Assembly (NCBI RefSeq): GCF_003334335.1
Contig: NZ_QOWQ01000053.1
Source: Escherichia coli
GTDB lineage: Bacteria > Pseudomonadota > Gammaproteobacteria > Enterobacterales > Enterobacteriaceae
Reading direction: 5' to 3' (one strand)
DNA: 20,311 bases
Under the pieces are notes generated by a model. It was not told the origin of the DNA, ran no database searches, and saw nothing but the letters and a program-made list of their open reading frames with translations. A program made the translations under genes and the position numbers. Positions 19,713 to 19,977 of the stretch are shown here, one piece after another (within the stretch, counting starts at the first letter, position 1; each line of letters starts with the position of its first letter).

Positions 19713-19905
19713 TACGAAAATTCTGTATTTGATGATTGTTTTATTTGCTCTCTTTTTATGCAGCCATTCTGTTGCTTATAAAAAAGCACCACTATCTCAT
19801 GTATAATTTCTGGGTCTGTCGTCTCCCCGTTTTTCACTTACAGATGCCGGGCAACATTCAGTTGCCGGAATCAGCAGTTACCATGCAATACGAAAATTCT
19901 GTATT
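19713..19905. repeat. 17-bp perfect direct repeat TACGAAAATTCTGTATT (two copies); the second lies inside an 8-bp-arm palindrome
   Basis: Copies at 19713-19729 and 19889-19905. The second is embedded in TGCAATAC-GAAAATTCT-GTATTGCA (19884-19908). Confidence 0.7.
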
Positions 19906-19977
19906 GCATCCACGCCCTCATCTCAATATCTTTGTCGCCGGATAAAAATAACTATCAACCACAAGTATCATGCTCTC

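Follow-up and report, generated by a model that had tools for sequence, protein, structure and literature searches.

Old tandem duplication of a terminator-like hairpin unit as the best description of a repeated 17-mer in the conserved spacer beside an Eib-type adhesin gene of Escherichia coli prophages

Eib proteins are prophage-borne immunoglobulin-binding adhesins, and EibG confers chain-like adhesion on LEE-negative Shiga-toxin-producing E. coli. Phage morons, such as lom and bor of lambda, carry their own promoter and terminator and are inserted between ancestral phage genes. OmrA and OmrB of E. coli are encoded by tandemly duplicated Hfq-dependent sRNA genes. The lambda OL/OR, gal and lac systems are paired or cooperative operators with DNA looping, and short direct repeats are substrates of replication-slippage deletions. 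Wild-type strains express Eib at a low level that varies with growth conditions, with EibG mRNA rising about 3-fold in static culture (PMC4352079). In the literature searched (the original Sandt & Hill paper lay outside it), no native eib control region and no transcripts in the spacer next to the adhesin gene were mapped, and queries on the eib promoter, H-NS, sRNAs and PhiR phages returned nothing relevant.

The stretch of DNA analysed here, termed the window, is 20,311 nucleotides long and consists of E. coli chromosome (btsS/btsR) joined to the terminal part of a P-EibA-family lambdoid prophage. Where the two meet, the translation of an ORF (16812-16940) contained nothing recognisable. The gene order on the minus strand is J, lom, tail fibre, tfa, a 795-bp gap, an Eib/YadA-type adhesin gene and two small hypothetical genes, past which a DinI-like gene lies on the plus strand. 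The tail-fibre assembly gene tfa (DUF4376; ORF-191A homologue) is represented by its 3′ end (20132-20311, minus strand) with the stop at 20132, and runs off the window. The adhesin gene (18263-19336, minus strand) encodes a 357-aa trimeric autotransporter annotated as a YadA C-terminal domain protein; the NCBIfam model YadA_autotrans matched its C-terminal part only, under the curated cutoff, and the position of the gene is homologous to that of eibA. The same arrangement was found in the P-EibA prophage fragment of ECOR-9 (accession no. AF151091), where the adhesin is eibA, and in the PhiR5/PhiR12 phages. The gap (20131-19337) was carried by 27-33 of 5426 complete E. coli genomes (< 1%), often in several prophages per genome. 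Its GC content is 39%, falling to 34% at 19560-19830, compared with 50.5% for the window, in agreement with the earlier note, which had called the stretch AT-rich.

The locus resembles a moron in that an eib-type adhesin gene has been added behind the tail-fibre genes, close to where the prophage ends, with an annotated stem-loop downstream of the adhesin and a long spacer upstream. It differs in that the hairpins described below face the opposite way, antisense to eib and tfa, and they are therefore not the moron's own terminator. The spacer (19337-20140 compared with L027, L030, L037 and L048) was 93-99% identical across loci whose adhesin proteins were 39-73% identical, which places a module boundary at about the adhesin start codon and points to either a regulatory module or a homology arm for adhesin swapping. 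The spacer may serve as an arm for adhesin allele exchange.

The 17-mer TACGAAAATTCTGTATT occurs at 19713-19729 (copy 1) and 19889-19905 (copy 2), in exact copies on the plus strand, 176 bp apart from start to start. These were the only matches with up to three mismatches in the 20.3-kb window. In 100 dinucleotide-preserving shuffles of the window the mean number of 17-mer matches was 0.08, and two matches were reached in 0 of 100; the pair is not a chance occurrence. The same-strand duplication at this distance, which had been noted from the letters, was thus borne out. Positions 1-15 of copy 1 were invariant in all related loci, while positions 16-17 were variable, at the point where the break between two haplotypes (types A and B, see below) begins. 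Copy 2 carries a single T to C change (position 10, 19898) in haplotypes termed A′.

Copy 2 is also the core of a palindrome, ATGCAATAC-N9-GTATTGCAT (9+9+9, 19883-19909, no strand assigned), as the earlier note had described, with arms 1 bp longer on each side than written there. Its predicted fold has an energy of -10.2 kcal/mol (z = -5.4) on the plus strand and -10.8 kcal/mol (z = -4.1) on the minus strand. In A′ haplotypes an uncompensated change, G19885 to T, weakens the fold to -4.0 kcal/mol. Folding gave no significant hairpin at copy 1, where just the inner TAC-N9-GTA is present; this inner dyad is common to both copies, and the 9-bp arms exist at copy 2 only and are mutated in A′. A further hairpin, at 19843-19872 (no strand assigned), lies between unit 1 (see below) and copy 2; its predicted folds have energies of -13.4 and -14.1 kcal/mol, both strands giving a z near -3.1, and its arms are altered in L005/L006 and in B′ haplotypes. 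Search for a larger duplication at an offset of 176 with the 17-mer left out gave a match fraction of 28.5% against a background of 26.5%, which is unremarkable.

Four ORFs overlap the repeat region, and all four carry stops or frameshifts in other variant types; the hydrophobic peptide MIVLFALFLC... of type A, for example, is lost in type B. No family was matched by these four ORFs in a PHROG search, and NCBI PGAP annotated nothing in the gap. The suspicion that the overlapping ORFs are not real genes was thereby upheld, and a protein-coding gene was rejected as the nature of the repeat region by the lack of a PHROG match together with the lack of an ORF intact across variants. A 55-aa ORF (19968-20135, minus strand), listed as a hypothetical protein in PhiR5_1, shares bases of its GTG start with the tfa stop (GTGA). 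Haplotypes of the A′ and P-EibA types carry it in broken form only, no family was matched, and it is probably not a gene.

The alignment of the gap drew on E. coli genomes, phage records and viral contigs, with 47 true metagenome loci added through a neutral anchor (19922-19941) that does not contain the 17-mer; about 60 related loci were compared. The region is mosaic. The type B haplotype is about 25% diverged from type A, the type of the window, from the last base of copy 1 to about 19868, so that the two types part precisely where copy 1 ends. A 114-bp segment (19797-19910, no strand assigned), flanked by an ATC microhomology and including copy 2 and its palindrome, has been lost from about 20 of the roughly 62 distinct loci (about 30%), P-EibA among them. 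Where both copies are present their spacing is 176, 177 or 180 bp. One metagenome contig (L126) has a single 17-mer, with the left flank of copy 1 joined to the right flank of copy 2 and 176 bp gone. In every structural variant (two-copy, 114-bp deletion and 176-bp deletion) a 17-mer is kept upstream of the hairpin T1 (see below) on the plus strand. As the flanking blocks are as invariant as the 17-mers among orthologous loci, which form a young, recombining family, there is no 17-mer-specific conservation signal among them.

The contig L126 resembles an unoccupied site into which 159 bp with the 17-mer on either side could have been inserted. No other contig shows this, its flank haplotype is a derived one (B′), and deletion between the repeats fits better than insertion, which would have involved a 17-bp duplication and no terminal inverted repeats. 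The precise loss at the 17-mer is what is known of repeats that undergo replication slippage. The likeness ends there: slippage is something that the repeat leads to, and it explains neither the origin of the repeat nor a function, and the common 114-bp deletion uses another, 3-bp microhomology (ATC).

The near-invariant block upstream of the adhesin gene (19337-19728, no strand assigned), delimited by the locus alignments, ends at copy 1 and contains a stem-loop (19440-19477) annotated in AF151091. Within this stem-loop lies TATTAAAATTCGGAATT (19442-19458, minus strand), an inverted relative of the 17-mer with four mismatches; it is the sole such near-match in the 51-kb phage, where 1.15 are expected by chance. 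The block also contains a 25-codon leader ORF (19424-19347, minus strand) with a good AGGAG ribosome-binding site (19436-19432), which ends 10 nt before the adhesin ATG, itself without a clear ribosome-binding site. An ORF of equal length and position with the same 10-nt gap, MKGNEVSVFLMCSDTRCSVCIQIIS, was present in a divergent Eib upstream family (L031/L033/L035) and absent from L032 and L038; the leader ORF may encode a coupling peptide or a leader peptide. An inverted repeat, ATCAAATTGTGCT-N14-AGCACAATCTGAT (19628-19667, 12 of 13 positions complementary), sits in the same block between back-to-back promoter-like hexamers, TTGACT at 19624 on the minus strand and CTGATA at 19663 on the plus strand, and by its position it is a better candidate operator than the 17-mers. 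A polymorphic tandem duplication of 11 bp, ATGACCATTGA at 19665/19666, was found a short way upstream of copy 1 in L005, L008, L010, L014, L019-L021 and others, and it shifts the candidate plus-strand -35.

Comparison of the related loci revealed that each 17-mer stands at the head of a similar unit, consisting of the 17-mer, 73-80 nt, a GGGGAG..CTCCCC hairpin and a T-run on the plus strand; type B loci have both units intact. Unit 2 (19889-20003, plus strand) is intact in the window: copy 2 is followed after 73 nt by the hairpin T1 (19978-19995) and a T-run (19998-20003). Unit 1 (19713-19834, plus strand) is decayed in the window, where copy 1 and about 80 nt are followed by a hairpin remnant, GGGTCTGTCGTCTCCCCGTTTTT (19812-19834), with a fold of -2.7 kcal/mol, a decayed left arm and no terminator-like character. 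The type B counterpart, GGGGAGCGTGCCGTCTCCCCGTTTTTT, about 80 nt right of copy 1, is terminator-like on the plus strand (-12.5 kcal/mol), and T1 with its T-run, GGGGAGCACGCACTCCCCAGTTTTTT (19978-20003), closely resembles it. T1 (T6), the type B unit 1 hairpin and a further hairpin, T2 (20107-20124, T7), are predicted plus-strand intrinsic terminators, and the type B gap of 800 bp contains four plus-strand terminator-like hairpins where 0.9 are expected.

The tails of units 1 and 2 of type B, aligned with the 17-mer excluded, gave z = 6.2 against shuffles that kept mononucleotide composition only, and 0 of 500 shuffles reached the score, while control segments gave z of 0 or below. The same alignment with the type A unit 1 tail of the window was not significant. 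From unit to unit the head is preserved at 17 of 17 positions and the hairpin and tail at about 22 of 30. No likeness was detected between the 75-nt unit middles (z = -0.8) or the upstream flanks (z = -0.1), nor significant similarity between the post-hairpin spacers, and a duplication over the full 176-bp period therefore cannot be shown. A third unit, ending at T2, was considered and rejected since no similarity was found. We regard the 17-mers as the conserved heads of two copies, diverged and in local tandem, of a non-coding plus-strand unit of about 115-125 bp, with a probability of about 0.7. If head and terminator were the constrained parts, uneven preservation along the unit would be the expected pattern.

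The hairpins look constrained, as judged from substitutions among haplotypes. Where T1 has an internal G to T change, it also has, in 9 of 10 haplotypes, an A to G change that lengthens the stem. T2, which was located by the hairpin scan and abuts the tfa stop codon (20107-20131 with its T-run, plus strand), had 0 of 12 stem bases changed inside a 31%-diverged block (P about 0.01), and its loop changes. A terminator-like hairpin antisense to tfa and abutting the tfa stop was also observed in an unrelated Eib upstream family (L033, 2017-2032). The T2-type hairpin may have terminated an ancestral transcription unit converging on tfa. Against the reading of the units as transcription units given below stand the decay of the type A unit 1 hairpin, the dispensability of copy 2 and the uncompensated A′ changes in the palindrome and copy 2. 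The similarity of the units rests mainly on hairpin and T-run and could also be convergent.

The arrangement suggests, tentatively, that the units are small sRNA-like transcription units on the plus strand, antisense to the tfa-to-eib direction. Each would be, or would have been, transcribed from the plus strand. The 17-mer would be the functional part or seed, located at or close to a 5′ end that is left unpaired, and an intrinsic terminator would form the 3′ end. In the window the terminator of unit 1 has decayed, leaving unit 2 (19889-20003) as the only complete one, and in loci that have lost copy 2, copy 1 is fused to the body of unit 2; the presence of two copies would explain why one unit can be lost. 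Both transcription and sRNA function are held here with rather less than even confidence. The more specific proposal, that the spacer encodes a tandem pair of prophage sRNAs whose shared 17-nt 5′ end is a seed for host or prophage mRNAs, is unlikely as it stands.

When unit 2 was folded from the 17-mer, the 17-mer was unpaired and the terminator hairpin was at the end; the fold z-scores of the isolated units were not significant. A weak promoter-like pair, TTCAGT (19857)-16-TACCAT (19879, extending to 19884), is unchanged in all two-copy haplotypes, and transcription from it would start inside copy 2. It scored 6.1 in a position-weight scan, about ninth on the plus strand, and was missed by a consensus scan. 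Unit 1 has no equivalent -10 at the matching offset; a different weak candidate, CTGATA-17-TAAATT (19663-19691), was not called by consensus either. The Rfam search of the window gave no match at E ≤ 1, and that of a type B locus gave chance-level matches only (E > 4, well below gathering scores). Compared with OmrA/OmrB, the locus likewise has two adjacent same-strand units with identical 5′ ends, similar 3′ intrinsic terminators and diverged middles, and folding predicts a 5′ end free of pairing. It differs in that the units are predicted from sequence, with weak and dissimilar promoters and no Rfam match, that one unit is often decayed or deleted, and that they belong to one prophage module present in < 1% of E. 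coli genomes.

Nearly as likely as sRNA-like units is a functionless relic, in which the repeats and the hairpins are leftovers from times when sequence next to tfa was duplicated and recombined and accessory genes came and went at that junction, inherited in a young and frequently recombining prophage module; the identity of the 17-mers would then come from recent short templated copying or conversion, and their sole present effect would be as a deletion substrate. This fits the low diversity everywhere, with 17-mers no more invariant than their flanks, the decayed unit 1 hairpin of type A, the loss of copy 2 and its palindrome in about 30% of loci and their mutation in A′, the mosaic structure, in which types A and B part where copy 1 ends, the narrow distribution (27-33 of 5426 complete genomes) and the precise 176-bp loss in one contig, where the repeats mediate deletion. 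On the other side, neutral decay strong enough to leave 75 random nt in the middle and to alter about 27% of the hairpin region would hardly have spared 17 of 17 head positions (0.73^17, about 0.005), a separate 17-nt copy at a matching distance (73 compared with 80 nt) from a matching hairpin is improbable, and the hairpins show signs of constraint. The proposal that the 17-mers are remnants of a small repeated element holds in part: a local, diverged tandem duplication of a hairpin unit stands, and a dispersed or mobile element does not. The search for the 17-mer across genomes and related prophages found it kept in the related loci and nowhere else in the 51-kb PhiR5_1, the complete genome of which contained no further copy with up to three mismatches. 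A dispersed repeat or miniature mobile element was rejected since no copies occurred at unrelated phage, plasmid or enterobacterial sites: plasmids gave no matches, and across viral contigs, species genomes, phages and plasmids no 17-mer beyond the locus family exceeded chance, one unrelated integrase-like gene aside. In 100,044 species genomes there were 58 single matches, none enterobacterial, which is about the chance number except for 17 in that one gene. That gene, common to Pasteurellaceae, Neisseria and Moraxella, is a nearly identical integrase-like ORF (> 394 aa, tyrosine-recombinase-type motif), unrelated to the E. coli locus, in Haemophilus, Rodentibacter, Actinobacillus, Pasteurella, Aggregatibacter, Neisseria, Kingella and Moraxella; loci with the 17-mer in this ORF are L060, L065, L073, L075, L080, L085-L087, L093, L097, L099, L104, L106 and L107. 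Its near-identity across these genera implies a mobile element spread across families.

Two further readings place the function in the DNA or in a minus-strand transcript. That the copies are DNA-level sites for a host or phage regulator or for H-NS-type nucleation, cooperating over about 17 helical turns and tuning how strongly the adhesin gene or an antisense promoter is transcribed, is improbable. It would account for the TAC-N9-GTA dyad in both copies, the 9-bp arms at copy 2, the spacing that stays at 176-180 bp, the AT-rich context and the four-mismatch inverted relative in the same gap (19442-19458), and some regulation exists, given that EibG mRNA responds to growth conditions (PMC4352079). 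Yet copy 2 is missing in about 30% of loci, P-EibA included, the 51-kb phage holds no further copy with up to three mismatches, and 330-550 bp separate the copies from the best promoter-like site of the adhesin gene, TTGAAC-17-GATAAT (19382-19354); the paired operators that had been suggested are thus poorly supported. That promoter-like site lies in the only part of the spacer common to other Eib families, which lack the 17-mer, and a search of the other Eib upstream families found neither related units nor the 17-mer. Promoter scans placed no strong promoter over either copy; neither copy overlaps or adjoins a credible promoter, and the two are not both kept wherever the adhesin is kept. The outer arms, 18 bp from centre to centre, would be out of helical phase for a symmetric dimer, and the non-palindromic 9-nt core, identical in both copies, points to common descent rather than dyad recognition. 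As in lambda OL/OR, gal and lac, two identical non-coding sites lie a whole number of helical turns from each other (176-180 bp, about 17); unlike there, no credible promoter is overlapped, one site is often dispensable, the phage has no further sites, and the repeats are direct repeats of an asymmetric sequence. Motifs of LexA, CRP, the PurR/LacI family, CytR, Lrp and H-NS and invertase sites fitted poorly by eye, and are leads only. Least probable of all is that the copies are cis elements of a minus-strand transcript, from late-operon read-through or a long eib leader, in which reverse complements of the 17-mer pair with 19442-19458, just upstream of the ribosome-binding site of the leader ORF, or in which the copy 2 hairpin acts as a processing or stability element. 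Inverted repeats lie at 19437-19459 / 19888-19910 (74%) and 19441-19454 / 19717-19730 (86%), 14 of 17 pairs could form, one G-U counted, and the copy 2 hairpin is equally stable on the minus strand. The pairing is, however, short, AT-rich and 260-430 nt distant, it is not kept in loci that lack copy 2, the four-mismatch match is near the chance rate (1.15 per 51 kb), and no convincing minus-strand promoter was found upstream of the copies.

Taken together, the feature is real, non-random and non-coding, and the description that suits it best is that of a unit with a terminator-like hairpin, duplicated in tandem long ago in a conserved prophage spacer; the 17-mers are neither an operator pair needed for the adhesin nor a mobile repeat. 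If the units are relics, the finding is an ordinary one that documents module decay, including deletion between repeats. By its predicted architecture the unit pair is a candidate pair of new prophage sRNAs. Should the units be sRNA genes, a new prophage-encoded regulator would be added, and the pair, if it exists as proposed, may link expression of the Eib adhesin or the physiology of the lysogen to growth conditions.
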